DNA from: Clostridiales bacterium
Lineage (GTDB): Bacteria > Bacillota > Clostridia > Christensenellales > CAG-314
Length of the DNA stretch: 64,000 bases
Reading direction: 5' to 3'
Assembly: GCA_022508345.1 (NCBI GenBank)
Contig: JAFLVK010000001.1
Location: 100,371 to 164,370 of the forward strand
Under the pieces are notes generated by a model, which saw only the letters and a list, made by a program, of their open reading frames with translations, was not told where the DNA came from and did not search any database. The translations under genes and the position numbers were made by a program. Every line of letters begins with the position of its first letter. Positions within the stretch are counted from its first letter, which is position 1. Positions 6,509-42,016 of the stretch are shown one piece after another.

Positions 6509-8641
6509 CTAAATTTTGGGAGATAGAACAAGGCTAAACGTACATTGATTTGTTTCGCTGCCATTTCCTTTTTCAATGAGTATGTACAGCGTATCGCCTT
6601 CCTCTACAACCAAATCTTGCGTAACCGTTACTCTGTTACCGCTACCGCCCCAAGAAGCTTGACCGTCGTTTGTCTTGATGTGTCCGTCCTTGTCCATCAA
6701 TGCCCATCTAATAGCAAAGCTGCTTGTTTCTCCGCACGTAAGGGCAAAGTTGAAGCTTATGCTTGCTGCAACTTGGAAGTTGTAGGCAAGTCCTACCATT
6801 CCGTCATTCGCCATCCAGTCGCCCTTGACTTCCATCCAAGGAGAACTGTTTTTGAACGCCTCTGTATCCGCGTTCAAAGCGGTAAAGCCAAAGGTTTCGT
6901 TATCCCAGTTGTAATCTATCTTGCCCACTTGCCAGTTGGAGTTGCCTGCCAGTGTGTTTGCGAAATCACTGTTGAAATTAGCGCCTGTAAAGGTGGGAAT
7001 TTCTCTTGATGCAATGTCAATGCTAAAACTACGCTGGTTGCTTCCATCTTCTTTGTTGACAAGGATACACAGCGCGTCACCGTTGGCAACAAGAATGTTG
7101 TCATTTAGCAATACGTCTTTGCCACTGCCACCCCAAGAGGCTTTTCCGCCATTTGTTTTGATTACGTTGTCACTGCCCTTCAATGCCCATCTCACCGAGC
7201 ACGTACCGTCATTTGAGCAGTTAATTACAAGGTTGAAGTTTACAAACGCATCTGCTTTGAAATGATATACAAAGCACATCATACCATCCGTTGCCATCCA
7301 GTCGCCCTTGATGTCCATCCAGGGGGAGTCGTTGTGGAGAACGTCGCCTGATTGCGTTGTTATGGGAGTGTAGGTAAAGTCTTCTGCGCCCCAGTTGTAA
7401 TTTACTACGCCTACTTCCCAGTTGGAATTACCTGCAAAGGTTTTTGCAAAGTCATCTTGGAAATTACCGATTTCGGTGTAAGAATCATCCAACTTGGCAA
7501 TAGGTTCCGTTTTAACTGCTTCTTCACAGATTTTGCAGGTGTAGGTCATTTCGCCTTCAACCCTCTTGGTGGGATATTTGGTCAATACACCGTCGCCCCA
7601 CTCGTGTGGCACTGTATCAATAGTTTCCTCGTATTCTTCATCGCATGAAACGCACTTGTATGTCCTTGTGCCCTCTACATTGCAGGTGGGTTCTTCCGTA
7701 ACGCTACCTTGGTCCCACACGTGCAGACAGGGCGCGTATAATGTAAATGACAGCTCGCCCTCTACCGTTGACGTGTCGGCATCTAACACAAGATATACTG
7801 TGCTGCCCTTTGCTACGTTTACAGCGTCTTGACTTGTGTAGGTCCACTCCGATTGGTCCTCGTTAAGAGTGACAACCGTAGTTTCTTCTCCCACTACAAC
7901 AAGGTAAGCCTTAACAACTCCGCCCGCAAAAGAAACGGTGAACATTGCCTGTACATGCTTGGGAAGCTCCTCGGTGAAGCTGAAAACAATTGCTGCCTTA
8001 GCAGAACTTACCTTTACAGCGCCATTACCGATTTCAACACCCGTTGCACTCCACACACCGTTCTCGGCAGTTGCAGGAGTAAACTGAATATTGCCGCTTG
8101 TCACGTCAAAAACAGTGGCAGCTCCGTAGCTCCAATCAGTTTTATTTTCCACATCGGTGTAGAACTGCTCAACAAAGTCAGCGTGCGCGTCAATTGCCAC
8201 CTCTCGCGTAGTTTTGCAATCCAAGCAGGTGTATGTCCTCACTCCGGCAGAGGAGAACTCCGACGGTGTGGTGATTACGCCGTCATTCCAGCGATGTTCG
8301 GTTTTGCCGATAGGCTCAGTCTTGGTTGCCGTGCAACCCTCATTTGTGCACTTGTAGGTCTTTTCGCCTGCGTCGTTACATTTAGGCTCTCTGCTAACTT
8401 CGCCTTGATCCCAGCTGTGATCGGTCATGTCAATAGGCGCCGTTTGGGTTTGCTTGCAGCCCTCCACCGTACAGGAGTAGGTCTTTACCCCCTCAGTGTG
8501 GCATGTGGGCTCCGTCGTTACAACGCCCTCATCCCATATGTGATCGTGTTCGCCCGCTGTTTTGTTGTCACAAGCGGTCAGACACAGTGTTACGCAAAAT
8601 ACCATTGCTACAACAAGGCTCAGAAGTCTGATTTTTTTCAT
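6509..8641 (-). CDS. Lipoprotein with five His/Cys-rich ~38-aa repeats and three beta-sandwich-like modules
   Basis: Start set at ATG 8641 (MKKIRLLSLVVAMVFCVTLCLTAC, lipobox LTAC, RBS AGAGG). Repeats have the form H-x-W-D-x-G-x-V-T-x-EPTC-x3-G-x-KTY-x-C-x2-C. Tandem ~150-aa domains share NSNW...YNW...SPWM..KGDWMA.DGM...RWAL...IKTN.G.ASWGGSG. Confidence 0.65.
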   Translation of the reverse strand: MKKIRLLSLVVAMVFCVTLCLTACDNKTAGEHDHIWDEGVVTTEPTCHTEGVKTYSCTVEGCKQTQTAPIDMTDHSWDQGEVSREPKCNDAGEKTYKCTNEGCTATKTEPIGKTEHRWNDGVITTPSEFSSAGVRTYTCLDCKTTREVAIDAHADFVEQFYTDVENKTDWSYGAATVFDVTSGNIQFTPATAENGVWSATGVEIGNGAVKVSSAKAAIVFSFTEELPKHVQAMFTVSFAGGVVKAYLVVVGEETTVVTLNEDQSEWTYTSQDAVNVAKGSTVYLVLDADTSTVEGELSFTLYAPCLHVWDQGSVTEEPTCNVEGTRTYKCVSCDEEYEETIDTVPHEWGDGVLTKYPTKRVEGEMTYTCKICEEAVKTEPIAKLDDSYTEIGNFQDDFAKTFAGNSNWEVGVVNYNWGAEDFTYTPITTQSGDVLHNDSPWMDIKGDWMATDGMMCFVYHFKADAFVNFNLVINCSNDGTCSVRWALKGSDNVIKTNGGKASWGGSGKDVLLNDNILVANGDALCILVNKEDGSNQRSFSIDIASREIPTFTGANFNSDFANTLAGNSNWQVGKIDYNWDNETFGFTALNADTEAFKNSSPWMEVKGDWMANDGMVGLAYNFQVAASISFNFALTCGETSSFAIRWALMDKDGHIKTNDGQASWGGSGNRVTVTQDLVVEEGDTLYILIEKGNGSETNQCTFSLVLSPKI

Positions 8642-8746
8642 TTTATACCTCTTGCATATTTTTTGCACAAACCGTTTCCTGTTACAGGGTTTGTACTTTA
8701 CTAGCATAGTATTTTATTATCTTATTGTCAACAAAAGAGCATTTTT

Positions 8747-11664: not shown

Positions 11665-14310
11665 TTACTTGCGTGGGTTCTTGATGTTAGCTTGAGCTGC
11701 TGCCAAACGTGCGATAGGTACACGGTAAGGTGAGCAGGATACGTAGGTCAGACCGATGCTGTGAGCAAATTCGATACTGCTGGGGTCACCACCGTGCTCG
11801 CCGCAGATACCGCATTGAAGCTCGGGACGGGTCTTTCTACCAAGCGTTACAGCCATGCTCATGAGCTTACCAACGCCGATTGTGTCAAGACGTGCAAACG
11901 GGTCGCTTTCGTAAATCTTGGTGCTGTAGTAGCTGGGCAGGAACTTGCTAGCGTCGTCACGGCTGAAACCGAATGTCATTTGGGTCAGGTCGTTTGTACC
12001 GAAGCTGAAGAATTCTGCTTCTTTTGCGATTTCGTCAGCGGTCAAAGCAGCTCTGGGAATTTCGATCATTGTACCAACTTGATATTCAAGCTTGCAACGG
12101 CTTTCCTTGATAACCTTGTCAGCTGTTTCAACAACAATCTTCTTGACATAAGCCAATTCCTTAACTTCGCCAACAAGCGGAATCATGATTTCGGGAACAA
12201 CGTGCCACTTGGGGTGACGCTTGTGTACGTTCAAAGCAGCCTTGATTACCGCACGGGTTTGCATCTTTGCAATTTCGGGGTAGGTTACTGCCAGACGGCA
12301 TCCACGGTGACCCATCATGGGGTTGAATTCGTGCAATGATTCGCAAATTTGCTTTACTTGAGCAACAGTCTTGCCTTGAGCCTTTGCAAGTTCTTCGATG
12401 TCGTGTTCATCTGTGGGAACGAACTCGTGAAGAGGAGGATCCAGGAAACGGATAATAACGGGATAACCCTTGAGTGCTTCCATAAGTCCTTCGAAGTCTG
12501 CCTGTTGAAGGGGTTCAATCTTAGCAAGAGCTCTTTCGCGCTCTTCTACTGTTTCGGAAACAATCATTTCACGGAACTTGTCGATACGTCCCTCGCCGAA
12601 GAACATGTGCTCGGTACGGCAAAGACCGATACCTTGTGCGCCAAGTTCTGCTGCGCGTTCAGCGTCAGCGGGTGTGTCGGCGTTTGTACGAACTTCCAAA
12701 GCCTTGTACTTATCAGCAAGCTTCATGATACGTCCGAAGTAACCACTGGAGGGGTCTGCAGGCACAGTCTTGATAGCGATGTTGTAAATCTTACCTGTGG
12801 AGCCGTCCAAGGAGATGTCGTCGCCCTCGTGGAATACAATGCCGCCAAGCTCGAATTGCTTGTTAGCTTCGTCCATCTTGATGTCGCCGCAACCGGATAC
12901 ACAGCAAGTACCCATACCGCGTGCAACAACTGCTGCGTGAGAGGTTTGTCCGCCGCGAACTGTCAAGATACCTTGAGCGTACTTCATACCCTCGATATCT
13001 TCGGGAGAAGTTTCAAGACGAACAAGGATAACTTTCTTGCCTTGTTTTCCAAGTACAACTGCATCTTCCGGTGTGAACACAACAGTACCTGCTGCTGCTC
13101 CGGGGCTTGCTGCAATACCCTTGCCAACAACATTTTTCTTGTCAGCTGCTGCAAGAGCGTCTACGTCGAATGTGGGGTGAAGAAGCATATCAAGAGATTT
13201 AGCGTCGATTTGCATCAAAGCTTCCTGTTCACTGATCATGCCTTCGTCGATAAGGTCGCATGCAATCTTGATAGCAGCGGCGGCTGTACGCTTGCCGTTA
13301 CGTGTTTGGAGCATGTAAAGCTTACCACGTTCAATGGTGAACTCCATGTCCTGCATGTCTCTGTAGTGATGTTCGAGTGTATCGCAAACTTGAAGGAATT
13401 GTTGATAAACTTCGGGCAAAACTTCTGCCATTTGAGAAATGGGCATCGGTGTGCGAACGCCTGCTACGACGTCTTCGCCCTGAGCGTTCATAAGGAATTC
13501 GCCCATAAGACCCTTTTCGCCTGTTGCGGGGTTACGTGTGAATGCAACGCCTGTACCGCAGTCGTCACCCATGTTACCGAAAGCCATCATCTGTACGTTA
13601 ACTGCTGTACCCCAGCTGTAGGGGATGTCGTGGTCCATACGGTAGATGTTTGCACGGGGGTTGTCCCAAGAACGGAATACTGCTTCCACTGCTGCAAACA
13701 GTTGTTCTTTTGCGTCCTGCGGGAATGGCTTACCGATTGCCTTTTTGTACTCTGCCTTGAACTGTGTTGCAAGGGTCTTGAGGTCGTCGGCGGTAAGTTC
13801 AACGTCGGATGTGATTCCGCGTTTTTCCTTCATTTCGTCGATAAGAACTTCAAAGTACTTCTTACCAACTTCCATAACGACGTCACTAAACATTTGAATA
13901 AATCTTCTGTAGCAGTCCCAAGCCCAACGGGGGTTGCCGGATTTAGCTGCAAGAACTTCTACAACTTCGTCATTCAAACCAAGGTTCAAAATTGTGTCCA
14001 TCATGCCGGGCATGGATGCGCGAGCACCGGAACGTACGGAAACGAGAAGAGGGTTCTCCTTGTCGCCGAACTTCTTGCCTGCGATTTTTTCCAGCTTAAC
14101 GATGTACTTAAGAATTTGATCCTTAATTTCGTCGTTGATACGTCTGCCGTCCTCGTAGTACTGCGTGCAAGCTTCTGTACTAATTGTGAAGCCTTGGGGA
14201 ACAGGAAGACCGATGTTGGTCATTTCTGCAAGGTTGGCACCTTTGCCGCCAAGCTTTGCGCGCATTGTAGCGTTGCCTTCGCTAAACAAATAGGTATACT
14301 TTTTTGCCAC
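11665..14310 (-). CDS. ppdK: Pyruvate, phosphate dikinase
   Basis: The (M)AKKYTYLFSEGNATMRAKLGGKGANLAEM N-terminus, the phosphohistidine region GGQTSHAAVVARG and the PEP-utilizer C-terminus are all present. Start set at GTG 14310, 8 nt after GGAGG; the track ORF uses an upstream TTG. Confidence 0.95.
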   Translation of the reverse strand: MAKKYTYLFSEGNATMRAKLGGKGANLAEMTNIGLPVPQGFTISTEACTQYYEDGRRINDEIKDQILKYIVKLEKIAGKKFGDKENPLLVSVRSGARASMPGMMDTILNLGLNDEVVEVLAAKSGNPRWAWDCYRRFIQMFSDVVMEVGKKYFEVLIDEMKEKRGITSDVELTADDLKTLATQFKAEYKKAIGKPFPQDAKEQLFAAVEAVFRSWDNPRANIYRMDHDIPYSWGTAVNVQMMAFGNMGDDCGTGVAFTRNPATGEKGLMGEFLMNAQGEDVVAGVRTPMPISQMAEVLPEVYQQFLQVCDTLEHHYRDMQDMEFTIERGKLYMLQTRNGKRTAAAAIKIACDLIDEGMISEQEALMQIDAKSLDMLLHPTFDVDALAAADKKNVVGKGIAASPGAAAGTVVFTPEDAVVLGKQGKKVILVRLETSPEDIEGMKYAQGILTVRGGQTSHAAVVARGMGTCCVSGCGDIKMDEANKQFELGGIVFHEGDDISLDGSTGKIYNIAIKTVPADPSSGYFGRIMKLADKYKALEVRTNADTPADAERAAELGAQGIGLCRTEHMFFGEGRIDKFREMIVSETVEERERALAKIEPLQQADFEGLMEALKGYPVIIRFLDPPLHEFVPTDEHDIEELAKAQGKTVAQVKQICESLHEFNPMMGHRGCRLAVTYPEIAKMQTRAVIKAALNVHKRHPKWHVVPEIMIPLVGEVKELAYVKKIVVETADKVIKESRCKLEYQVGTMIEIPRAALTADEIAKEAEFFSFGTNDLTQMTFGFSRDDASKFLPSYYSTKIYESDPFARLDTIGVGKLMSMAVTLGRKTRPELQCGICGEHGGDPSSIEFAHSIGLTYVSCSPYRVPIARLAAAQANIKNPRK

Positions 14311-14377
14311 TGTTTTTTCCTCCAAAAAATTATTACATCGTTAAGAGCCTTTTATGCTCATACGCATCTATTTTACA

Positions 14378-15013
14378 TTATTTTGCCAAATTAGACAACT
14401 GTTTAGGCGGAAAAAAATATGGAATAGGGTCGGCTGTTTGCGCGTTTGCCTGTACGGCAAATACAATTACTGAAATTGAGCAGCTTTTGCCCTCGGCAAT
14501 TTTGTCGCTGTCCTGTAGTTCAATGCGGACGGTGAGGGTTGCAACCGTTTGCTCGCTGCCGTCAGACGGAAGCAGCGCCCAGTTGGATGCACGGGCGGAC
14601 TCGGTGTCAATCAATTCCACACCGTCAATGTCCACGTCGAGGGCATTGCACAGCTGTGTGTCGCCGTCAAACACAAGCTGAACCTGCCACTTTATTGCAA
14701 CTGTACTGTTGCTGACAACTGCTATATCAAATGTTACGCCGTCATAGGGAGCCATGTTGCTGAGCGTGATTTCGCCGTCCTTTTCGCTAGCCTCGCCGGA
14801 AAGCCATTCGCCATCTACCCTAGCCCCGTGCTCGTCGCGCGTAAACATGTTGAAATCGGCAATACTTGCCGTCACCTCCACCTTGCCCGATGTTACAGCA
14901 ATGTTGGTTGAGGTATTGCTTGCAAACATGGCAAAGGTTGAGCCTACAATGAGGCTCAGACACAGCACTACCGTCAACACTGACGTAAGAAGGATTGTAC
15001 CTGTTTTGTTCAT
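14378..15013 (-). CDS. TasA/camelysin-like secreted protein, paralog 1 (SipW-type signal peptide)
   Basis: N-terminal TM followed by GSTFAMFASN. C-terminal FAVQANAQ. Paralogous to the two upstream genes. Confidence 0.65.
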   Translation of the reverse strand: MNKTGTILLTSVLTVVLCLSLIVGSTFAMFASNTSTNIAVTSGKVEVTASIADFNMFTRDEHGARVDGEWLSGEASEKDGEITLSNMAPYDGVTFDIAVVSNSTVAIKWQVQLVFDGDTQLCNALDVDIDGVELIDTESARASNWALLPSDGSEQTVATLTVRIELQDSDKIAEGKSCSISVIVFAVQANAQTADPIPYFFPPKQLSNLAK

Positions 15014-15030
15014 ATTGTCTCCTTTTTCAA

Positions 15031-15615
15031 TCAGTCAATTTGAGCGTTTGCCTGCACGGCGTTGACTGAAATAATGGCAGTTCCGCTAAAGTACGGCAGC
15101 TGTGACGAATGTGGAAATTCGAAAAATACGCTTACAACACTTACAAGGTCTTGATCTGCTTGCGCGTCAATCCTTTCCCATGAGGTAGTAAAATATGTGT
15201 CGTATTTGCCGACGAAGTCCACACCCCCTTCTGTGGACAAATTTATCTGTTCAAAAAACTCCGCGTCCGCTTCCACCTTTACCTGCCACTTTGCAGCAAG
15301 CGACCCGATGTTGCTGATATATATATCCAATTTAATACCGCAACCGGGCACTATATTTGTGAGGGTAAGCTCTCCGTTTGATGAATCGAACGAATATTTG
15401 CCACCGTAAAGCCACCCCATTTGCACTTCATTGCCGTCGTTGAAATACGTACTCGTGATGGGCATAGAGTACGTAACAGTCAATATTCCGCTGGATACGG
15501 AAATATTTGTAGTGTTTTCGTCCTCGAAAAGGGCGTAGGTTGAGCCTACAACCAAGCTCCAACACAATGCCACTGTAAGTACAAATATGAGAATAAGTTT
15601 GCTGATTTTGTTCAT
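15031..15615 (-). CDS. TasA/camelysin-like secreted protein, paralog 2
   Basis: N-terminal TM followed by GSTYALFEDE. Also PGCG and NAVQANAQ motifs. Confidence 0.65.
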   Translation of the reverse strand: MNKISKLILIFVLTVALCWSLVVGSTYALFEDENTTNISVSSGILTVTYSMPITSTYFNDGNEVQMGWLYGGKYSFDSSNGELTLTNIVPGCGIKLDIYISNIGSLAAKWQVKVEADAEFFEQINLSTEGGVDFVGKYDTYFTTSWERIDAQADQDLVSVVSVFFEFPHSSQLPYFSGTAIISVNAVQANAQID

Positions 15616-15633
15616 TTTCTCACCCCAAGTGGG

Positions 15634-16266
15634 TTAGTTTTGCCAAGTAAGCTGCACTGCGTGTACAATCATGTCAACGGTAAGCTGCTGCCCCTGCGCT
15701 TCGTTGTTTACTTCGTCGTCATCAACAAATTTCAACTGCACAGTGAACGTGCCAACACCATCTAACAGCACGTTACCAAGGGGTGACGAGGCATTGCCCC
15801 ACAGGTATTTTTCACCAAGATTACCAAGCATTACCGTTTGTGTATTTGTGTCGGTTTTCAGTGTAAGCTGAAGCTGTTCGGCAAGCTTGTTTGCTTCGCC
15901 CTGTAGCACAAACTCCAGGTAAAAGCAGATTGCCACGTCACCGTTGTTTTTCAGCGAAAACTTCGCCCCAAATTCACAACCGGGGACAACCTTGACTTCA
16001 TCACTCAATCCAAATATATTGTCGTTTGTTGCCTTGGTAAATTCCTTTGCAACATTGTCTTGCACACTTGTCAACAGCCCCTGATCGGAAAGCAATGTGC
16101 TGCTAAGCTCGTCACGCCAAAGCTGCACTTTCAGTTCGCCTGATTGCAGGTGATTTACCACATTTACCGAATCGCTAAACAACGCGTAAGTTCCACCCAC
16201 TATCAATGCCAGACAGCACAGTACCGTCACGCAACAAAGACTGATTGCTCTTATACGTTTTGACAT
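15634..16266 (-). CDS. TasA/camelysin-like secreted protein, paralog 3
   Basis: N-terminal TM followed by GGTYALFSDS. Also VVPGCEF, NNEAQGQQL and HAVQLTWQ motifs. Confidence 0.7.
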   Translation of the reverse strand: MSKRIRAISLCCVTVLCCLALIVGGTYALFSDSVNVVNHLQSGELKVQLWRDELSSTLLSDQGLLTSVQDNVAKEFTKATNDNIFGLSDEVKVVPGCEFGAKFSLKNNGDVAICFYLEFVLQGEANKLAEQLQLTLKTDTNTQTVMLGNLGEKYLWGNASSPLGNVLLDGVGTFTVQLKFVDDDEVNNEAQGQQLTVDMIVHAVQLTWQN

Positions 16267-16295
16267 AATTATCTCCTTTAGATAGCTTTGATTGA

Positions 16296-16958
16296 TTAAT
16301 CTGCAGACGTTGTTGCCACAGTTTGCACCTGCGTTGCTGCAGCATGTGATGCCTGACGTGCTAGTCTGCGACGTTCCTTTTCGCGGCGTTTTGCTTCTTC
16401 GCGTTCTTCACGTATTTCGCGTACGGCAATGTCTATGCTGTCCTTTGCCGCGCCCACGTCCTTTGCCGTCAATAGCTTCAAGGATGTTGCCGCCTGCTTG
16501 ACGGATATTTTGTTGGTGGATACGTATCTGCTGAAATTGGGGTTTGCAATGATAAATTCGCAGATAACGGTACCCCGCTTGATAAGCAAACGGATAATGC
16601 GTTTGCCATGCAGACGGTACTCGTCGTAACCGCCGGTAGTGACACACTTTACTTCTTCCACCCTGTTGGCGTATTCGGCAATCTCGTCGTACCAAGCCTT
16701 TTGTTCGCCACTCAGTGCCATGTACTTGTATTTGTGGCTTTGCTTGGGCTCAGCGGAAAACCTCACCTGATCGTCGTCCGCCGCAATCACCACCGTCGAC
16801 TGTTGAGCAGCTTGCTGTTGCCCTACCTGTGTTGTGTCGGCTGATTTTTTTGTCTTGCGCTTGTTGCTATCGCGAAGCATATCGCGCACCACTACACATA
16901 CGGTAAATATGCACATTACCACAACCAATACCATAAAACCGAAAATTAAAGTTTCCAT
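16296..16958 (-). CDS. Single-pass membrane protein of unknown function in the SipW operon
   Basis: Strong RBS AAGGAGG. N-terminal TM (LIFGFMVLVVVMCIFTVCVVV) followed by a basic stretch, a Q-rich linker, a globular region and a highly charged tail REIREEREEAKRREKERRRLARQ. Confidence 0.6.
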   Translation of the reverse strand: METLIFGFMVLVVVMCIFTVCVVVRDMLRDSNKRKTKKSADTTQVGQQQAAQQSTVVIAADDDQVRFSAEPKQSHKYKYMALSGEQKAWYDEIAEYANRVEEVKCVTTGGYDEYRLHGKRIIRLLIKRGTVICEFIIANPNFSRYVSTNKISVKQAATSLKLLTAKDVGAAKDSIDIAVREIREEREEAKRREKERRRLARQASHAAATQVQTVATTSAD

Positions 16959-16991
16959 ATATTCCTCCTTGTTTCAATAAATTTACAATTT

Positions 16992-17690
16992 TTATTCTGT
17001 TGCCTTTTTGCGTTTGGCAATGTTTACAATTTTGGATACATTCCAGGCAATGACAATTACACAAGGAACAATGATGAGCACAGCCAATCCCAGCGGACGT
17101 TTGAGTGAGTACACCAACAAGCCCAAAACGTAGCTTTTGCCCGTTACCCTGCCAATGACGTAGTTGGGGCTTGCCGTGTTGCTTGTGTCGATAGTTTGCA
17201 CGTCGGCAATTCCCGTTGACGACGAATTGTCGCCGCGTAATGTTATGACGTATCCGCCTGTGTCGTTGGGTTCAATGTCAACGATACGGTGAGTGATTGT
17301 CATTTGGGGAGATTGTTTGCCCTCGAAATGCTGACCTGACACGTCGTAGCGGAACGTAAGCACGTCGCCCACCTTTAGCCGGGAGTAGAACTCCTGCGCC
17401 TGCGCTGCACCATCGGGAACAAGCTGCACAAATACCATGCTGCCCTTTCTTATGTCCTTTATCCGACAGTCGGATACGTCCACGTCGGAGTTCTTTTCCA
17501 TTGACCCGCTAAGCACTATCCGCATTTCGTAGCCCAACAGCTTTACCGCGCCGTCCGTATCCCGTTTGCTGAAAACGGTAAACAGCAGCATCGCCAAACA
17601 AAGCGTGCAAAATACGTACACCGGCACATTTGCCACCACGGTCAGCGCCCTGTTGAATTTTGTTGCAGATTTCTTCACGGTTTTTGTCAA
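16992..17690 (-). CDS. sipW: Signal peptidase I, archaeal/ER (SipW) type
   Basis: Catalytic-Ser box LSGSMEK, His box ITHRI, RGDN, and a C-terminal TM anchor. 4-nt overlap with the upstream gene. Confidence 0.75.
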   Translation of the reverse strand: MTKTVKKSATKFNRALTVVANVPVYVFCTLCLAMLLFTVFSKRDTDGAVKLLGYEMRIVLSGSMEKNSDVDVSDCRIKDIRKGSMVFVQLVPDGAAQAQEFYSRLKVGDVLTFRYDVSGQHFEGKQSPQMTITHRIVDIEPNDTGGYVITLRGDNSSSTGIADVQTIDTSNTASPNYVIGRVTGKSYVLGLLVYSLKRPLGLAVLIIVPCVIVIAWNVSKIVNIAKRKKATE

Positions 17691-18169
17691 AATTTTTCCG
17701 CTGTGAGGTTAACTGTGAAATGGGTTGTTGCGTTTTGCGCTTCGTTGCCCGTATCTAACGGCATGGAATATATCACCTTTATTACAGTTGTTTTTGCGCC
17801 TATGCGGCAATTAAAACTGACGGTTTTACCCTCTAGCAGCTCCGAAAGCCTGTAGGTGTAGCAATCCTGCCCGTACTGCAATGCCACGTCGACGTAATTT
17901 TTGAGTGCGCCATTGTCCACCTCGACAAAATCAAAGTTTAACATGTACGTGCCTGCCGATTTGCCCTTGAGGTTGATTGTGTACTCCCTCACGTCGCCCG
18001 GATTCAAACCGCTGGCGGAAAATTCCAGCTTTTCGCGCGTGATGTCATTGTCATTTAGTGTGATATCTTTCATCAAATCGTTGTCTGTTGTAAGTAGCAC
18101 CGTAACAAGTAGCCCTACGCCCACAAGTAGCATCACAACGGTTACTATCGGTAAAACGTATTTTCTCAC
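17687..18169 (-). CDS. Divergent TasA-fold / TapA-like secreted or anchored protein (operon leader)
   Basis: GTG start behind GGAGGG. N-terminal TM without the ALF-D motif. LNPGDVREYTINLKGKS and GNEAQNATTHFTVNLTAE resemble TasA-family motifs. Confidence 0.5.
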   Translation of the reverse strand: MRKYVLPIVTVVMLLVGVGLLVTVLLTTDNDLMKDITLNDNDITREKLEFSASGLNPGDVREYTINLKGKSAGTYMLNFDFVEVDNGALKNYVDVALQYGQDCYTYRLSELLEGKTVSFNCRIGAKTTVIKVIYSMPLDTGNEAQNATTHFTVNLTAEKF

Positions 18170-18295
18170 GCGAACCCTCCAAGTAAAAATCTGATTTTGT
18201 CAAAAGCGAATATTTTTAGTCAATTGCTTATATACTGTAACGCAAAAATTCCAATAGATATTCAGTAATATTGAGTGTAAATGTCGCAAAATGCA

Positions 18296-18335
18296 AAAAG
18301 GCTCTCCCTCATTTAAAGGGAGAACCTTTTACTTA
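18296..18335 (-). terminator. Terminator after galE
   Basis: Hairpin TCTCCCT-catttaa-AGGGAGA flanked by A/T runs. Confidence 0.55.
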
Positions 18336-18355: not shown

Positions 18356-19366
18356 TTATCTGTATCCGTTGGGATTTTTCCTTTGCCAGTTCCACAACGA
18401 GCTACACATGTCGTCAATGCCCAGCTTTGCCTCCCAGCCAAGCTCTTTTTTGGCTTTTTCAGCGCTGGCGTAGCAACTTGCTATATCTCCGGCTCTGCGT
18501 GGCTTGATAACGTACGGAAGGGTGTGTCCGCATGCCTTTTCGAAAGCGTGAATTACGTCCAGCACGCTGTAGCCAATGCCTGTACCAAGATTGTAGGTGT
18601 ACACACCTGCGCTTGTAAGCTTTTCAATTGCCGCAATGTGCCCCTTTGCCAGGTCCACAACGTGGATGTAGTCGCGTACACCTGTGCCGTCGGGTGTATC
18701 GTAGTCGTTGCCGAACACGCCAATCTCTTTCAGCTCGCCAATTGCAACCTTTGCAATAAAGGGCGTGAGGTTGTTGGGGATACCCTTGGGGTCCTCGCCT
18801 ATAAGCCCGCTTTCATGAGCGCCAACGGGGTTGAAGTATCTGAGTAGCGCAACCGTCCACTCACTGTCCGCTGCGTACACGTCCTTGAGTATCAACTCCT
18901 GCATGTATTTGGAGGTTCCGTAGGGGTTGGTTGTTCCGCCCACTGCGCACTGTTCGTCAAGGGGCAAACGCTCGGGTGAGCCGTACACCGTTGCCGACGA
19001 CGAGAACACTATGCGCTTGCAACCGTGCTTTTTCATTTCTTCAAGCAACACCAGCGTGCCGCCGATGTTGTTGTCGTAGTATTCCAGTGGCATTTCGCAC
19101 GATTCGCCCACTGCCTTGAGCCCTGCAAAGTGGATAACCCAATCTATCTTGTGCTTAGCGAATATATGAGACAAAATTTTACGGTCACGTACGTCATTTT
19201 TGTAAACGGTTACCTTTTTTCCGGTAATTTGCTCCACGCGCTTGAGACACAACGGTGAAGAGTTGCTGAAGTTATCTATTACAACAACTTCGTGCCCGCG
19301 ATTGAGTAGCTCCACTACCGTGTGCGATCCAATGTAGCCTGCGCCACCTGTAACAAGTATTTTCAT
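18356..19366 (-). CDS. galE: UDP-glucose 4-epimerase
   Basis: [16 protein letters not shown]-terminus and YGTSK catalytic motif. 336 aa. Confidence 0.92.
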
Positions 19367-19378
19367 AGTGTTCCTCCT

Positions 19379-20494
19379 TTAACATTTAGTAACAACGATA
19401 CCGTCGTTAATGTCCGTGTCGTAACAGACGGCGTCGTAACCGATTTGCTTTTTGTATTCCCTTACAACATGCTGCTTGAAGTCATCAACGGCATCCGTCT
19501 TGACAAGCGACACCGTACAACCGCCAAAGCCACCGCCCGTCATGCGCGAACCGATGCAAGCAGGGTGCGACTGTGCAATGTGGGCCAGTGCGTCCAGTTC
19601 CTTGCCCGTCACCTCGTACAGCTCAGATAGTGACGCGTGCGACGCATTGAGGAGCTTGCCGAACTGCACCATATCTTTGTTGCGCATGGCAATTTCCGCA
19701 AGGTGTACGCGTTCGCATTCCTCCACGACGTGCTTTGCGCGCTTGTACACCGTGGGGGGAAGCAAGCTTTTGTGCGCCTCCAGCTCGCAAGGTTTAACCT
19801 CCGCAAGGCAGGTAACATTTAATTTGCTACTCAGCAATTTCAATGCCAGCTCCGTCTCTTCGCGACGTTCGTTGTAGCGACTTTCCACCAGATTGTGCGG
19901 CTTGTTGCTGTTGATTATCACTATTGAATAGTCTCCCGTATTTACTGGAACATATACGCAATCAAGTGTTTTGCAGTCCAGCAGCATTGCGTGCCCTGCC
20001 CTGCCACACGCCGATGCGTACTGGTCCATGATTCCGCAATTTACCCCGGCGTATTCGTGTTCCGCCTTTTGCGCAAGTAACGCAATCTCCACAGGGTTGG
20101 GTGTTTCACCTGCTATCACGGCAAACGCGGCAAGCGCGGATACTTCAATGGACGCCGAAGAGGACAGCCCGCTACCGAAGGGTACCTTGCAGTCAATTAG
20201 CATATCGCAACCTTTAAGTTGGTGCCCAGCACTCTTCCACAACGAAGCGCAACCAGCAAAATACTTGGCGTATTTGTGCGATTTGTATTCCTCCAGTCTG
20301 TTAATATCCATGGATACCTTGTCGGGCAAGGTTGTCCAGGAAAGGTTGATAATTTGCGAACCGTTTTCTCGAACGTATACAGTTGTGACAAGAGACAGCG
20401 CGCACGGCATCACCTTGCCTCCGCAGTAATCGATGTGTTCGCCTATAAGATTAACGCGCCCGGAAGCAGTTACTTTGTATTGGTAATTGTTCAT
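19379..20494 (-). CDS. galK: Galactokinase
   Basis: Signature GRVNLIGEHIDY and GHMP-kinase motif PFGSGLSSSA. Confidence 0.92.
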   Translation of the reverse strand: MNNYQYKVTASGRVNLIGEHIDYCGGKVMPCALSLVTTVYVRENGSQIINLSWTTLPDKVSMDINRLEEYKSHKYAKYFAGCASLWKSAGHQLKGCDMLIDCKVPFGSGLSSSASIEVSALAAFAVIAGETPNPVEIALLAQKAEHEYAGVNCGIMDQYASACGRAGHAMLLDCKTLDCVYVPVNTGDYSIVIINSNKPHNLVESRYNERREETELALKLLSSKLNVTCLAEVKPCELEAHKSLLPPTVYKRAKHVVEECERVHLAEIAMRNKDMVQFGKLLNASHASLSELYEVTGKELDALAHIAQSHPACIGSRMTGGGFGGCTVSLVKTDAVDDFKQHVVREYKKQIGYDAVCYDTDINDGIVVTKC

Positions 20495-21987
20495 ATCGTA
20501 AAACCTAAATCTTTCATAAACTCCACCGTTTCCTGCTTTGTTTTGAATACGGCGGTATTGTCCAAAATGCGGTTGCAGATGTCGCCCAGCTCGTCCTGCA
20601 TTGCCCGGTGAACCTTGTTTTTGCTACGCGCACCGACGAGACGTTTTGTCACTTCGTCGTACACCAAAGCAAAGTCTTTCAGTTCGTCGCTTAGCGGCTT
20701 ACCCTCGGCAATCAGCGTTTCTATTTGATTGAGCTCAGCTTCCAAGCGCCCTGGGAGTATAAACAAGCCCTGCGCTTCGATAAGCCCGATGGACTCCTTT
20801 TTTATAATGTGGAACTCGGGATGAGCGTGGAATATTCCGTCGGGGTAAATGTCGCTTGTGATGTTGCTACGCAAGATGATGCTCATTTCGTACCCGCGCG
20901 CAGTTTTTACAACCGTGGGACTAATGGCGTTGTGTAAGCCCTTGCCGTCAACGGGAACTATCTGCTTAAATTTGTCTTCATAGCTTACCCATTTGGCACG
21001 TACAGCTTCGCCTATCTGTTCGATAGCGCTGCGGTTAGCGGACACAATGCGCACAACGGTGCCTGCCCAGTCCACCACCTCGACAATGGCATCTGGGTAC
21101 TTGGAGTTGCGCAGTGTGTAGCTGGCTTTCGCCTTGTGCATGGGCAATATTTCGCCACCGCCTTGGTAGTGGTCATGCGCAAGAACACTGCCGCCGATAC
21201 GCTCCAACGCTGCGTTACAGCCGATAAAGTAGTTGGGGAACATATCTACGAAATCCATCAGTCGCACAAAGGTTGCGCGGTCGGTGTGCATGGGTATATG
21301 CTCGTAGTTTACCGCAATGCCGTGTTGATTGAAATATCCGTAGGGCGAAAACTGCCAAAACCACTGCTCGCCACCAAGAGTGATGTCGATTGTGCGCAGG
21401 GTACGCTTGCTTCTGCCAGCGAAGCCCTCGTTTTCATGACAGATGCTGCACTTGGGATAACCGCCCTTTGTAGCGTTACCGCTGGCTGCCTTTTTCGGGT
21501 CGCGGAACTCGGGTTTGGACTTGTTGATTGTAACTACAAGCCCCTGCGAATCAAAGCGTGGGTTTTTGTCCAGTTGAGATTTTTTTACGTAGTCGCCCTT
21601 TACTGAGTAGTCGTAAAACCACTGCATAGCTTCACCGCTGCCCAGCGTGCGCAGCTTTTCTTCAAATACAGCCTGCGTTTCCTTTGGGGACATCATGAGC
21701 TCGCCCATTACGCTGTCGCAAAAGTAGCTTGCCTCCTCACGCTCGAACACACCCGCATTTACGCACGCGTCGGCAAAGCGTTTAAGCACGTTGTCGGGCG
21801 TTACGTCCAGGCACTTTTCCTGCGTGTCATTCGCAAATGATTCCAGCCCAAGCAAACGCAATATCCCGTTGCGTACGTAATGAACATTTTTTCTGTCCAA
21901 ATTTAACTGGCGCTCGGCGTAGTCGATGAGCGCATCAATGCTACGGTAAACCTCTGTCATAAATAACCTCGGCACATACTTTTTCAA
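20491..21987 (-). CDS. galT: Galactose-1-phosphate uridylyltransferase, family 2 (long Gram-positive type)
   Basis: 498 aa. 4-nt overlap with galK. Family-2 GalT length and layout. Confidence 0.85.
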   Translation of the reverse strand: MKKYVPRLFMTEVYRSIDALIDYAERQLNLDRKNVHYVRNGILRLLGLESFANDTQEKCLDVTPDNVLKRFADACVNAGVFEREEASYFCDSVMGELMMSPKETQAVFEEKLRTLGSGEAMQWFYDYSVKGDYVKKSQLDKNPRFDSQGLVVTINKSKPEFRDPKKAASGNATKGGYPKCSICHENEGFAGRSKRTLRTIDITLGGEQWFWQFSPYGYFNQHGIAVNYEHIPMHTDRATFVRLMDFVDMFPNYFIGCNAALERIGGSVLAHDHYQGGGEILPMHKAKASYTLRNSKYPDAIVEVVDWAGTVVRIVSANRSAIEQIGEAVRAKWVSYEDKFKQIVPVDGKGLHNAISPTVVKTARGYEMSIILRSNITSDIYPDGIFHAHPEFHIIKKESIGLIEAQGLFILPGRLEAELNQIETLIAEGKPLSDELKDFALVYDEVTKRLVGARSKNKVHRAMQDELGDICNRILDNTAVFKTKQETVEFMKDLGFTI

Positions 21988-22143: not shown

Positions 22144-22517
22144 GGGGGTGTTTTTAGATTCGCCCGGCGTCAAAGGAGATTTGATAAGCGCGTCGCAGCG
22201 CCCACTGCGTATCAAGGCAAAATTAAATTAAACGCTAACAATAGCACAAGCCGTTCCACAGGAATGGCATTCGCTGCCTAGTTTAATGCCAGCGCGTAGG
22301 CTTTCGCACTTTTGCGTTGCGAGATGTCCTGCGTTATAACACGCAAATAGAGCCGTAACGGTTGCAACGAGACGTTACAGCTCGAAGCTAATTTCGTTGC
22401 AGGCAACGGCAAGTTGGTTTACTATCTAGCCGTTGCGACAATGAAAGTAAACTACACGCGTAGAAAGTCAGGTAGTCTTACGTTGGTACACGGGTGCAAG
22501 TCCCGTCACCTCCACCA
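22144..22517 (+). ncRNA. ssrA: tmRNA (SsrA)
   Basis: 5' GGGGGTG pairs with 3' CACCTCC-ACCA, giving a G3:U70 alanine identity pair. T-arm ACGGG-TGCAAGT-CCCGT. Tag frame GCT AAC AAT AGC ACA AGC CGT TCC ACA GGA ATG GCA TTC GCT GCC TAG encodes ANNSTSRSTGMAFAA*. Confidence 0.9.
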
Positions 22518-31383: not shown

Positions 31384-32634
31384 TTATTCATTGTTTTCAG
31401 TTTCGCTAGCTTTGGCTGTAACTTTTCCGTGGCGTTTGTCATAAACAAGCAAAAATACTGTTCGTACAAACAAAATAGCGGAAAGTATCATTAACGGAAG
31501 ATCGTTCAACAGGCTGCCCGAAACGAAAAATCCGCATACGAAGAATATTAGCGTTGTAATAAGTGCAGCAACTGCAAGATACGCGCCCTCAACCTTCAAA
31601 ACGGTTGAATAGCTCCTGCCCCACTGCGACTTCATAGTCCTCAGTACTAGCCATGCCACAAACGCCAGCGCCAAAGCGAAGAGTGTTACTACCACCAGGT
31701 ATCTTAAGATATTGCCAAGATACAAGCTCGCATACAGCGGAACAGCGGCATAGAAAGCCTCCCTGAGGAAAGCATCGGTTTCGCTTGCCGACACGTTGCC
31801 GACGTGCTTTGCGCTGTACAAGCCGTAGAAAGTAACCGGCAAATTACCGTCGGTATGAAATGAACCAACCAAAAACTCCTCAAAGATAAACAGATAATCG
31901 CAAGCCTGTTGGCTATTTATATAATTGTCGTAGTAGTAATTTCTGAGCAACGGCGCCGAACCTGCGGAAACATACTTTGTTATTTCGGGATAGTATGCTT
32001 GCAGATACAGCGCGTAAACATCTAAATTGTACTCCTCTTGAGAAATGGAGTTTTTGCTTGCCAGTAAGCTATTGTACTGCTGCTTTATGTCGTCACTATC
32101 TGTCGTGTTCAAGTACTGCTCGTACTGTGCAACCAATTCGTCTGTCAGCACCAGCTCGTTGGGTGTGTAGCGCAAATTGAAGATGTAATTTATCTTTTCT
32201 TCGTCGGGCAATGCCAGATAAGCCTCGTAGGTAATCTCGCTTGAACCGTCGTAGTACACGCAGTACGTTTCGAAATCGTCCAATGCCGTAGACGGGCGAG
32301 TATCAACAACCAGGTTGTAACCGTTTGTGCTGTAAAGGTCCGCATCCTCCTTATTGACGAAGGTGTTTACCACTGTGTCAAATGCAGCGTGACTGTCACT
32401 GACTGTTACGTCCAAGTTGTCGAAAGCCGCCTGCGCAAATGCCTTGAAGTCCGTTGCGTGGTTGTAATGCGTTGCAAACGGCAAGAAATTTGCCGCAAGC
32501 AATCCACAGAAAATGAACGCAAGTGCCAACAGCAAGCCAAGGAAGAAGCTCAAAAAGCCTTTGCTATTGCTTTCCCTGGCTACCTTGTCGGAGAAGAAGC
32601 TCAGTCCAAAAAATCTAAGCCAACTTTTCATCAT
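31384..32634 (-). CDS. Polytopic membrane protein with large extracytoplasmic loop (DUF1189-like architecture)
   Basis: 416 aa. N-terminal TM, then a ~250-aa Y/D/N-rich loop, then 3-4 C-terminal TM helices. 60 nt downstream of the giant gene on the same strand. Confidence 0.5.
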   Translation of the reverse strand: MMKSWLRFFGLSFFSDKVARESNSKGFLSFFLGLLLALAFIFCGLLAANFLPFATHYNHATDFKAFAQAAFDNLDVTVSDSHAAFDTVVNTFVNKEDADLYSTNGYNLVVDTRPSTALDDFETYCVYYDGSSEITYEAYLALPDEEKINYIFNLRYTPNELVLTDELVAQYEQYLNTTDSDDIKQQYNSLLASKNSISQEEYNLDVYALYLQAYYPEITKYVSAGSAPLLRNYYYDNYINSQQACDYLFIFEEFLVGSFHTDGNLPVTFYGLYSAKHVGNVSASETDAFLREAFYAAVPLYASLYLGNILRYLVVVTLFALALAFVAWLVLRTMKSQWGRSYSTVLKVEGAYLAVAALITTLIFFVCGFFVSGSLLNDLPLMILSAILFVRTVFLLVYDKRHGKVTAKASETENNE

Positions 32635-32693
32635 TTCACCTCATTTGTTTGAAATATCCGTGCCAAGTTGATGGCAAACCGCATGCTTGCACA

Positions 32694-37673: not shown

Positions 37674-37684
37674 ATGCCAATCTC

Positions 37685-41939: not shown

Positions 41940-42016
41940 TGGTAGAGATAGTAGGGCTCGAACCTACGACCTCTCGCATGTGAAGCGAGCGCTCTGACCA
42001 ACTGAGCTATACCTCC
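41940..42016 (-). tRNA. tRNA-Val (anticodon CAC), CCA encoded
   Basis: The reverse complement GGAGGTATAGCTCAGTTGGTCAGAGCGCTCGCTTCACATGCGAGAGGTCGTAGGTTCGAGCCCTACTATCTCTACCA folds as a cloverleaf of 77 nt. The acceptor stem has two G-U pairs (1-72, 5-68). Confidence 0.9.

Follow-up and report, generated by a model that had tools for sequence, protein, structure and literature searches.

Six genes encoded on the minus strand are packed between the galE terminator and ppdK in the 64-kb stretch of DNA that was analyzed (hereafter, the window), with galT, galK, galE and ppdK as flanking genes (Table 1). All the open reading frames of what an earlier note had described as a SipW/TasA-like fiber operon were present between positions 14378 and 18169, where it had placed them, and the intergenic gaps of 33, 29, 18 and 17 nt also coincided. 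A 4-nt overlap between G1 and G2, on the other hand, exists only with the TTG start of G2. The gene caller applied to an identical metagenome contig chose a GTG codon 12 nt downstream (product of 228 aa), with which the two genes would be 8 nt apart.

A candidate promoter, defined by consensus match only (9/12 positions), was located 25 nt before the G1 start, and a Shine-Dalgarno-like sequence was observed ahead of each of G1, G3, G4, G5 and G6. A search for internal minus-strand terminators within the six-gene unit gave none. The six protein sequences contain no LPXTG motif, and the pairing of LPXTG with a locus-encoded sortase that would define a sortase-assembled pilus is not found here; nor was a twin-arginine motif found in the cluster proteins.

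Table 1. Genes and signals of the cluster; the slash in a signal peptide indicates the predicted cleavage site.
Feature	Position	Strand	Description
galE intrinsic terminator	18296..18330	-	Strong; 15-pair stem with 6 G-C pairs, then T-run; upstream boundary of the locus
Candidate promoter of the six-gene unit	18194..18223	-	Sigma-70-like; TTGACT, 18-nt spacer, CAAAAT, extended TG
G1	17687..18169	-	160 aa, GTG start; type II membrane protein with extracellular 9-strand jelly-roll (AF2 model)
G2	16992..17690	-	232 aa, TTG start (alternative GTG at 17678); SipW-class signal peptidase I, one transmembrane helix at either end
G3	16296..16958	-	220 aa; single-pass membrane protein, short N-terminus outside and C-terminus inside (positive-inside rule)
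G4	15634..16266	-	210 aa; TasA/camelysin-family subunit, SipW-type signal peptide ...GGTYA/LFSD
G5	15031..15615	-	194 aa; TasA-superfamily paralog, SipW-type signal peptide ...GSTYA/LFED
G6	14378..15013	-	211 aa; TasA-superfamily paralog, SipW-type signal peptide ...GSTFA/MFAS

The signal peptidase and the TasA-like proteins

The LSGSMEK, ITHRI and RGDN motifs and the C-terminal hydrophobic segment from which a SipW-class peptidase had been proposed were all confirmed in G2, which presents the Ser (SGSME), His (HR) and Asp (GDN) boxes of the ER/archaeal-type S26B enzymes and not a Ser-Lys dyad. Residues S63, H134, D154 and N155 were invariant in 36 homologs, and the hydropathy profile showed two hydrophobic segments (windows at residues 14-42 and 188-225). 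When the family profile was compared with PDB entries, the best matches were human SEC11A, in first place, and SEC11C; in the alignment with SEC11A, ithRi/gDn are opposite IVHRV/GDNN, and lsdsme is opposite LSGSME. The NCBIfam SipW model NF046067 was matched over its full length (E=8.5e-15, 54.8 bits), although its cut-off of 190 was not reached, and the match to TIGR02228 expected from the earlier reading was likewise obtained over the full length (E=6.7e-10) but with 39.1 bits, below the cut-off of 51.85. Orthologs behaved similarly, with 52-54 and 38-42 bits, respectively. These sub-cut-off scores indicate that G2 shares the peptidase class of Bacillus SipW as a divergent member and is not its ortholog, and its sequence features strongly support assignment to the signal peptidases I of ER/archaeal type (SipW class), as a dedicated enzyme. 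G2 itself is annotated as "hypothetical", as are, without exception, the 1668 homologs retrieved, which lack Pfam domains.

The sequences GGTYALFSDS in G4, GSTYALFEDE in G5 and GSTFAMFASN in G6 were found, as had been pointed out, each after an N-terminal hydrophobic helix. Their common motif, G-[GS]-T-[YF]-A-[LM]-F, was recognized by eye and with a regular expression, and these three were the only ORFs of the whole window that matched the latter. BLASTP supported the proposed paralogy of the three proteins (G5-G6, E=8e-30 over the full length; G4-G6, E=2e-9; G4-G5, E=3e-7), while the description of their C-terminal endings as AVQANAQ or AVQLTWQ had to be amended for G6, where AVQANAQ precedes a 19-residue tail. 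Of the profile checks suggested for these proteins, that with PF12389 (Peptidase_M73, gathering score 22.5) was positive for G4 along its full length (42.3 bits, E=9.4e-11; 31-54 bits in orthologs, with 31.6 and 54.3) and for the N-terminal 44 residues of G5 (28.4 bits), the body of which fell below threshold, but not for G6 (18.2 bits), a clear paralog only through BLASTP. With TIGR04088 (cut-off 19 bits), G4 was recognized (24.2 bits) while G6 was not (12.9 bits) and G5 was unlisted. The subunits scored 15-23 on the TasA equivalog model, whose cut-off is 450.

The combined G4/G5/G6 profile gave AbpX and TasA as top PDB matches (E=0.005-0.01), and the G4 family aligned with canonical TasA-like proteins of about 195 aa (hhalign, 99.1%). 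Residue F30, at position +2 past the cleavage site, is nearly invariant and corresponds to the donor-strand residue F29 of TasA (PMC9674648). There is thus strong support for G4, G5 and G6 being exported proteins of the TasA/camelysin superfamily with signal peptides predicted to be cut between the A and the [LM] of the common motif, and the mature proteins would be expected to adopt a jelly-roll fold. The central proposal of the earlier note, in which a SipW-class peptidase is accompanied by three TasA-like proteins as its substrates or as subunits, is therefore upheld by the matches to the SipW model, PF12389 and the paralog profile.

Membrane proteins G1 and G3 and the distribution of the locus

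Two genes had been left unassigned. The AF2 model of G1 (pLDDT 82.9) consists of a helix at about residues 6-27, oriented N-in because K/R residues precede it, and a jelly-roll. Foldseek searches with this model returned generic jelly-roll or CBM-like matches, among which TasA (5of2) had the highest TMq (0.52) and ranked only 36th by E-value. Comparison of the G1 and G4 families with hhalign gave 97.7% (E=1.4e-12), as against 3% with shallow alignments. The "divergent leader gene" is hence divergent indeed, but can no longer be called unassigned, and the locus encodes four TasA-superfamily proteins rather than the three previously counted. The SipW cleavage motif is present in 148/188 TasA-like proteins and in none of 118 members of the G1 family (0/45 and 0/73). 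This family comprises 527 clusters at 50% identity, nearly all of them of 155-175 aa, and no Pfam family was found for G1. The data strongly support placing G1 in the TasA superfamily as the fourth jelly-roll protein of the locus, a divergent one whose N-terminal helix never carries a cleavage site, and we propose that it acts as membrane anchor and terminator of a fiber.

The second gene, G3, can be partly placed as a membrane protein with a YdhG-like cytoplasmic domain. Its model (AF2, pLDDT 75.7) shows a cytoplasmic alpha+beta domain (about residues 75-161), a disordered linker rich in Q and E and, at the C-terminus, a long basic helix. Profile and PDB sequence searches gave no family or PDB match, and Foldseek gave weak matches to YdhG-like/DUF1801 proteins, YjbR and the C-terminal domain of T4 MotA (E=0.013-0.4, TMt 0.55-0.63). 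Twenty-two homologs were found; across related loci G3 is full-length in 34/73 and reduced to a helix-only stub in 18/73.

Of 79 related loci, which all come from uncultured Clostridia of the gut or rumen, at least 72 contain the G1-G2 pair with TasA-like genes after it, and G1 was missing from the other seven, so that a fiber could apparently exist without it. G4-type genes, with 76 ORFs across 80 loci, are the paralog type present in nearly all of them. In relatives, the C-terminus of G6 orthologs is extended by 300 to more than 800 aa, in the manner of tip or adhesin proteins, while G6 here has only the short tail; G6 was the best match for the long proteins of loci L003, L011 and L012 (E=1e-80 to 6e-25). 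At least one long protein with a TasA N-terminus was found in 55/59 loci, the tip-like subunits being of 360-2049 aa. Such a long tip-type subunit is missing from the 64-kb window, an observation that counts against the fiber model. The locus class extends to at least 241 GTDB species and is therefore not a one-off; the peptidase, the probable anchor and the extra membrane protein are carried by hundreds of gut species and are unnamed in current databases.

Proposed fiber assembly and comparison with known systems

Most likely, the cluster builds a TasA-type protein fiber on the surface of an uncultured gut Clostridia bacterium. We consider it reasonably probable that this would be a self-contained, sortase-independent TasA-superfamily fiber assembled by donor-strand exchange, with the uncleavable G1 as anchor and terminator; the exchange itself, the order of the subunits and the polarity of the fiber are what we infer from the data above. 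Subunits would be exported by Sec and stay attached to the membrane through their signal peptides, and the beta-sandwich of a subunit tethered in this way would take the N-terminal donor strand that is free on the growing fiber. G2 would then cut the signal peptide and release the subunit's own N-terminal strand (LF... or MF...) for the next incoming subunit, so that the fiber would grow from its base. In BsaA, whose oligomers are membrane-anchored, SipW has been proposed to cut after strand exchange (PMC11580942). G6-type subunits, which have giant variable adhesin-like C-terminal domains in most relatives, may be incorporated first, at the tip, followed by G5 as a minor or adapter subunit and G4 as the proposed major (shaft) subunit. 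G1 would take the last donor strand, thereby stopping growth and anchoring the fiber in the membrane, as modeled for TafF of Tafi pili, a membrane helix plus jelly-roll that accepts the donor strand of TafA and ends assembly (PMC11821415, PMC12337348). G3 probably contacts G1 or G2 within the membrane through its conserved transmembrane helix, and its cytoplasmic domain, which is optional, may link assembly with some process in the cytoplasm.

Other functions can be considered for G1. The eukaryotic SPC22/23 (SPCS3) has one transmembrane helix and a luminal beta-sandwich, and G1 might be an accessory subunit of the G2 peptidase of this kind, or like DUF5305/TafG, with the G3 helix as a further small subunit. 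G1 directly precedes G2 in 72/79 related loci, where the two genes often overlap and the median gap is 7 nt, G2 is followed by a small membrane protein (G3 or the stub), and helper proteins have been proposed for the peptidases of TasA-like loci (10.64898/2026.01.04.697558, PMC11821415), yet we regard this function as unlikely: G1 is homologous to the fiber subunits themselves, profile searches gave no match to DUF5305 or to any peptidase-complex family, seven loci have G2 and no G1, and in about 20 loci with a second SipW-like peptidase the position upstream of the latter is occupied by a cleavable TasA-like gene.

It is quite unlikely that G1 is instead a TapA-like nucleator working with the opposite polarity, donating its membrane-proximal N-terminal strand (residues about 31-38) to the first G4 in a fiber that secreted monomers would then extend distally, the mode of growth put forward for TapA and TasA. 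The segment past its helix (LMKDITLNDNDITREKLEFSASGLNPGD) does resemble the N-terminal sequence of TasA, donor strand included, and the first donor strand has been proposed to come from TapA (PMC9674648, PMC10151520). However, helix and strand are separated in G1 by only about 3-6 residues, the AF2 model places the strand with high confidence within the sandwich of G1 itself, as an integral part of it, and 74/80 tip-type subunits have cleavable N-terminal strands, which fits tip-first assembly. Neither G1 nor G3 matched the TapA model TIGR04087 (cut-off 80 bits), for which the signal peptide of G5 gave the sole match, at 17.4 bits. That G4, G5 and G6 are secreted proteins that do not polymerize into an ordered fiber (camelysin-like proteases, spore-coat or matrix proteins) seems highly improbable to us. 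PF12389 takes its name from a metalloprotease, and the first description of TasA linked it to the spore coat (PMC9674648), but no HExxH or other zinc motif was found in the three sequences, the modular repertoire of short and long subunits fits a pilus, and all structurally characterized members of the superfamily, i.e. TasA, AbpA, AbpX, CanA, TafE and BsaA, form polymers by strand donation (PMC9674648, PMC9245690, PMC12518558, PMC12337348, PMC11580942).

The previous statement that no characterized equivalent is known was too strong, since C. perfringens sipW-bsaAB(C), the archaeal Tafi pili and the AbpX loci are close analogues. The sipW-bsaA-bsaB(-bsaC) operon has been characterized, with sipW plus three TasA-family genes in most strains, and BsaA polymers are SipW-dependent, sortase-independent and membrane-anchored, donor-strand exchange having been proposed (PMC7395162, PMC11580942). 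Both loci belong to Clostridia and combine a dedicated SipW-type peptidase with several TasA-superfamily genes. In the bsa operon, however, the peptidase comes first, there is neither a G1-like gene upstream nor G3, and a VWA protein and a two-component system are included; in addition, G4 reaches only 15.1 bits on the BsaA family model TIGR04090 (cut-off 60 bits), for which G5 and G6 were unlisted. With B. subtilis tapA-sipW-tasA and B. cereus sipW-tasA-capP-calY the cluster shares a SipW-class peptidase, TasA/camelysin-type subunits and GGT[WY]A-type signal peptides. Those systems make donor-strand-exchange fibers of jelly-roll subunits with an accessory protein (PMC9674648, PMC10151520, PMC13082335), whereas the cluster has no TapA or CapP homolog, its subunits are very divergent and about 30 residues that Bacillus SipW lacks are inserted in G2 between its Ser and His boxes.

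Tafi and AbpX loci are described as encoding a tip subunit, adapter, core subunit, anchor, signal peptidase and accessory protein (PMC11821415, PMC12337348, 10.64898/2026.01.04.697558). The likeness in logic to haloarchaeal Tafi (tafA-G) extends to the proposed tip, adapter, core pilin and helix plus jelly-roll anchor (TafF), to the dedicated signal peptidase (PMC11821415, PMC12337348) and to a membrane protein, TafB in Tafi, part of which is a cytoplasmic domain. Tafi is archaeal, however, with Tat-exported pilins, four transmembrane helices in TafD and a DUF5305 accessory protein; the cluster would work like a Tafi locus but is no member of that group, and of Tat signal peptides, DUF5305 protein and anchor, only the architecture of the last is paralleled, by the G1 model. 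In AbpX-type loci, found in archaea and Bacillota, a dedicated signal peptidase is described alongside tip proteins and minor subunits (10.64898/2026.01.04.697558), and AbpX (9sj2) was the best PDB match of the G4/G5/G6 profile (E=0.005). Ten transmembrane helices have been reported for their peptidase, in contrast to the two of G2, and anchoring in the bacterial loci is by SLH or LPXTG, while the candidate anchor here is a transmembrane mini-subunit. The general type of fiber is known, and it is its own peptidase, the probable membrane anchor and the extra membrane protein that set the version of this cluster apart.

Organization of the cluster and its surroundings

The six minus-strand open reading frames of the cluster (see table) lie exactly where the earlier note had placed them, and the intergenic gaps of 33, 29, 18 and 17 nt it reported are also correct. 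The 4-nt overlap described between G1, which encodes a membrane jelly-roll protein, and G2, the gene for a SipW-class signal peptidase, holds with a TTG start of G2 but not with the gene model deposited for the identical metagenome contig, where G2 begins 12 nt later and encodes 228 aa; this different start is the reason why the TTG version lacked an exact-sequence match. Good Shine-Dalgarno sequences precede G1, G3 (encoding a single-pass membrane protein) and the three TasA/camelysin-like paralogs G4, G5 and G6. No minus-strand terminator was predicted inside the six-gene cluster or between G6 and ppdK, so that read-through into ppdK is possible. A c-di-GMP riboswitch was rejected, the Rfam scan upstream of the locus having returned no riboswitch or leader.

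The NCBI MAG "Clostridiales bacterium" contains a contig identical to the window (locus tags J1F68_00615 to J1F68_00625). The cluster sits between galT-galK-galE and ppdK, and its neighbours are ordinary chromosomal genes (galT, galK, galE, ppdK, H+-pyrophosphatase, dnaK, clpB, tmRNA). Among the related loci (designated by L numbers), ppdK was directly downstream in L001, L003, L005 and L010, and galT/galE upstream in L001 and L005; L003, L005, L007 and L010 are close syntenic copies from the same metagenome study and a sister MAG. Elsewhere in the window, a Big_2-domain surface protein is encoded between 416-aa and 532-aa membrane proteins without a Pfam family, in a region that may be another cell-surface gene cluster. 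A lipoprotein-like protein with repeated Cys-containing units (e.g. TEPTCHTEGVKTYSCTVEGC) gave no Pfam match, and similar CxxC-type repeats were seen in a protein encoded just upstream of the G2 homolog of L025.

Features of the window and of related loci
Feature	Source	Positions	Strand	Remarks
G1	window	17687-18169	minus	160 aa
G2	window	16992-17690	minus	232 aa (TTG start)
G3	window	16296-16958	minus	220 aa
G4	window	15634-16266	minus	210 aa
G5	window	15031-15615	minus	194 aa
G6	window	14378-15013	minus	211 aa
Promoter-like site	window	18194-18223		ahead of G1
Strong terminator	window	18296-18330		after galE, ahead of G1
Flank of the cluster	window	11665-14325	minus	
Flank of the cluster	window	18356-21987	minus	
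tmRNA gene	window	22144-22517	plus	104 bits
tRNA gene (one)	window	41943-42016	minus	
Possible cell-surface gene cluster	window	31384-39283	minus	
Big_2-domain surface protein	window	32694-37700		1668 aa
Lipoprotein-like protein	window	6509-8707	minus	732 aa
CxxC-type repeat protein	L025	67-6669		2200 aa
G3 stub	L011	7865-8029		54-aa gene in G3's place; transmembrane helix and RDRRRERK-type basic cluster
G3 stubs	L020, L032, L047, L069			
G6-type long subunit	L003	11502-12995		
G6-type long subunit	L010	10834-13971		
G6-type long subunit	L011	9064-11712		
G6-type long subunit	L012	8125-10323		
G6-type long subunit	L012	11126-13990		
G6-type long subunit	L025	9060-15209		
Second module	L022	8496-11958		
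Second module	L033	5137-8695		
Second module	L037, L038, L040, L043, L045, L051, L055, L057, L061, L062, L064-L066, L068, L076, L079, L080, L086			

A predicted signal peptidase and its candidate substrates

The assignment of G2 to the SipW class in the earlier note agrees with essentially full-length matches to the NCBIfam SipW equivalog (E=8.5e-15; 54.8 bits, far below the cut-off of 190) and to the archaeal-type signal peptidase I model TIGR02228 (E=6.7e-10; 39.1 bits, below the cut-off of 51.85), although both curated cut-offs were missed. A Pfam scan of G2 found no domain and, with such sub-cut-off scores, all 1668 detectable homologs, equally without a Pfam domain, have been left as "hypothetical". 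In an alignment of 36 homologs S63 (SxSME), H134 (T-H-R), D154 and N155 (GDN) were invariant, and hydropathy indicated transmembrane segments at both the N- and C-terminus. Human SEC11A and SEC11C were the top PDB matches of the family profile, with lsdsme, ithRi and gDn paired to LSGSME, IVHRV and GDNN, respectively; single-sequence phmmer searches of the PDB with G1, G2, G3 and G4 gave nothing meaningful. On the invariant boxes, profile matches, SEC11A/C alignment and hydropathy, G2 is a peptidase of the ER/archaeal (SipW/Sec11) class with Ser, His and Asp as its catalytic residues. It is not orthologous to Bacillus SipW but belongs to a divergent subfamily, in which ~30 residues are inserted between the Ser and His boxes. 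Most G2 homologs carry a K/E-rich, coiled-coil-like cytoplasmic tail (...EIEELKRQLA.L...) after the second transmembrane helix (alignment columns ~215-300), while G2 of the window lacks it and ends right after this helix.

All the peptide motifs quoted previously were found, the SipW-type motif being confined within the 64-kb window to the G4, G5 and G6 ORFs, whose paralogy is well beyond chance (E=8e-30 for G5-G6, 2e-9 for G4-G6 and 3e-7 for G4-G5). As to their proposed TasA/camelysin affiliation, it was recovered with both models for G4, which matched PF12389 (camelysin/TasA) along its full length (42.3 bits, cut-off 22.5) and passed TIGR04088 (SipW-cognate signal peptide), in part for G5, above the PF12389 cut-off through its N-terminus only, and for G6, which fell below it, through paralogy; G5 and G6 each align with G4 along their whole length. 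PF12389 and TIGR04088 were the only family models whose cut-offs were reached, and the locus thus lies outside the SipW, TasA, BsaA and TapA equivalog families, all of whose curated cut-offs were missed. The top five PDB matches of a profile of the three ortholog groups included AbpX (9sj2), TasA (5of1, 8aur) and a second AbpX (9rhp), the first three with borderline values (E=0.005-0.01), and with deeper alignments the G4 family matched canonical ~195-aa TasA-like proteins with an hhalign probability of 99.1%. We infer a jelly-roll fold for G4-G6 by homology. Residues T26, A28 and F30 (G-x-T-x-A/x-F) are invariant or nearly so across the three ortholog groups, and the F at +2 after the cleavage site corresponds to F29 of TasA, a hydrophobic residue central to the donor strand (PMC9674648). 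Neither HExxH nor LPXTG motifs were found in G4-G6; a protease function was rejected for want of the former, and a sortase pilus in view of the missing LPXTG motif and sortase gene.

Related loci and the G1 and G3 families

Relatives were sought with the G2 alignment in one genome per GTDB species. They were detected in 241 stretches, from which 80 loci were kept, all from uncultured Clostridia (goat, sheep, deer, reindeer, rabbit, cattle and other gut samples). According to HMM mapping, G1 lies directly upstream of G2 in 72 of 79 loci (median gap 7 nt), and at least one protein of 360-2049 aa with a TasA-type N-terminus is present in 55 of the 59 evaluable loci. G2 is followed by G3 or a stub of it and then by one G4-type gene of ~205-245 aa (76 ORFs). 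The long proteins belong to the G6 type, with C-terminal fusions of 300 to >1800 aa of repetitive beta-rich sequence, mostly without Pfam match (one with a GLUG motif), which are probably variable tip adhesins. A second module is found downstream in 20/59 loci, consisting of a ~195-aa canonical TasA-like gene (GATLALFTS...AVQGN), a second, more SipW-like peptidase (TIGR02228 borderline, 49-52 bits) and another long subunit. This module is absent from the window, whose locus, with short forms of all three cleavable subunits, is a minimal and unusual variant.

A word-indexed search yielded 15 G1 homologs, and an exhaustive profile search 527 clusters at 50% identity, 416 of them with E<=1e-10; single-domain proteins of 155-175 aa make up almost all of these. 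The family has no Pfam or NCBIfam entry, and a Pfam scan of 45 members returned weak Ig-like and CARDB matches only, with no DUF5305 or PF12389. The AlphaFold2 model of G1 (pLDDT 82.9) consists of an N-terminal helix (6-24) followed at once by a nine-strand beta-sandwich. Foldseek gave many generic jelly-roll, PPC and CBM matches (E ~1e-4), TasA (5of2) having the highest query TM-score (0.52) yet ranking 36 by E-value. A shallow G1 alignment compared with a mixed paralog alignment reached 3% in hhalign, and the relationship was revealed only by deep alignments from the 80 loci, with which the G1 family matched the G4 family at 97.7% (E=1.4e-12, 107 columns, reaching from strand "PG[DE]" to strand "GNEAQ...F.v.L.A" at the C-terminus) and canonical TasA-like proteins at 95.4%. 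On these matches G1, called a divergent leader gene in the earlier note, is a miniaturized fourth TasA-superfamily protein of the locus. The cleavage motif occurs in none of the G1-family members (0/45 and 0/73), vs 148/188 TasA-like proteins and 74/80 long ones, and basic residues ahead of the helix indicate an N-in, C-out topology. A 6629-aa protein (P0165), probably a giant CARDB/Ig-like repeat surface protein, contains 27 repeats matching positions 52-105 of the G1 profile (PGD...N.G beta-strand core).

For G3 there were 22 homologs, and neither a family nor a PDB match was obtained with its sequence (PDB: single sequence and profile). Three residues precede its transmembrane helix, and the R/K cluster after it indicates, by the positive-inside rule, that the rest is cytoplasmic. 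In the AF2 model (pLDDT 75.7) a disordered linker rich in Q and E leads into an alpha+beta domain (75-161), which is followed by a long helix of basic character (165-217). The Foldseek similarities, to YdhG-like/DUF1801, YjbR and the T4 MotA C-terminal domain, are weak (E=0.013-0.4, TMt 0.55-0.63) and by themselves assign no function. G3 is full-length in 34/73 related loci and reduced to a helix-only stub (50-180 aa) in 18/73; many loci have, where G3 would lie, an ORF of 50-70 aa for the G3-like helix and an RDRRRERK-type basic cluster. Since the stubs keep the helix, this is the conserved core and the cytoplasmic domain an optional add-on. Most likely, although with low confidence, G3 associates in the membrane with G1 or G2.

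Proposed fibre assembly and comparison with known systems

Within a tight operon structure, the locus combines a SipW-class peptidase of its own with four TasA-superfamily proteins, three of them cleavable subunits and one a non-cleavable, membrane-anchored mini-subunit; its G1-G2 pair is strongly conserved. The assembly model we favour draws on the structure of the TasA fibre (PMC9674648) and on the models for BsaA (PMC11580942) and Tafi (PMC11821415, PMC12337348). After export, subunits would stay attached to the membrane through their signal peptides, and each subunit so tethered would receive the N-terminal strand that the nascent fibre leaves free; cleavage by G2 would then release the subunit's own strand for the next one. 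G6-type subunits would form the tip, G5 the adapter and G4 the shaft, while G1, being uncleavable, would cap the base and anchor the fibre in the membrane.

In a rival reading, supported by its adjacency to G2, G1 would be an accessory subunit of the peptidase, comparable to SPC22/23 or to DUF5305 proteins, an explanation weakened by the homology of G1 to fibre subunits and by loci that have G2 without G1. A TapA-like nucleator role, with the opposite polarity, is likewise weakened, in this case by the linker of only 3-6 residues between the G1 helix and the first strand and by the cleavable N-termini of tip-type subunits. That G4-G6 do not polymerise at all is unlikely, as it would run contrary to every characterised relative.

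Beyond the cap-and-anchor role favoured for G1, we tentatively propose, as quite possible if on balance somewhat doubtful, that G1-G2-G3 mark a so far unrecognised but widespread class of surface pili of Gram-positive bacteria, spread over at least 241 GTDB species of uncultured Clostridia from gut and rumen: a base-growing fibre without chaperone or sortase, terminated and anchored by a TasA-like mini-subunit whose signal anchor cannot be cleaved, and tipped by giant hypervariable adhesin-like subunits. If true, this would be a third route to anchored adhesive pili in Firmicutes, beside sortase and type IV machinery. Fibres of the TasA superfamily are increasingly recognised, across domains, as a means of building biofilm and adhesion structures. 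How such fibres are anchored, started and stopped is a question also for Bacillus and C. perfringens, and the answer that this locus type offers, a paralogous subunit keeping its signal anchor, is simple and can be tested. Systems of this kind are carried by hundreds of uncultured Clostridia of gut and rumen, and their large variable tip proteins may set attachment to host or substrate.

The new elements are the trio of conserved unannotated families G1, G2 and G3, the recognition that G1 is a TasA-like mini-subunit that cannot be cleaved, and the breadth of the architecture across uncultured gut Clostridia. The three families being unnamed in Pfam and NCBIfam, these loci are invisible to standard annotation, and a full-text literature search returned no paper describing such a G1-G2-G3 locus type. 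The absence of any characterised equivalent, as put forward previously, was nevertheless too strong a statement. The locus lacks TapA, CapP, DUF5305, sortase, LPXTG and SLH components, but would work like tapA-sipW-tasA of B. subtilis and sipW-tasA-capP-calY of B. cereus, and also like sipW-bsaAB(C) of C. perfringens, the haloarchaeal Tafi pili and the AbpX loci.
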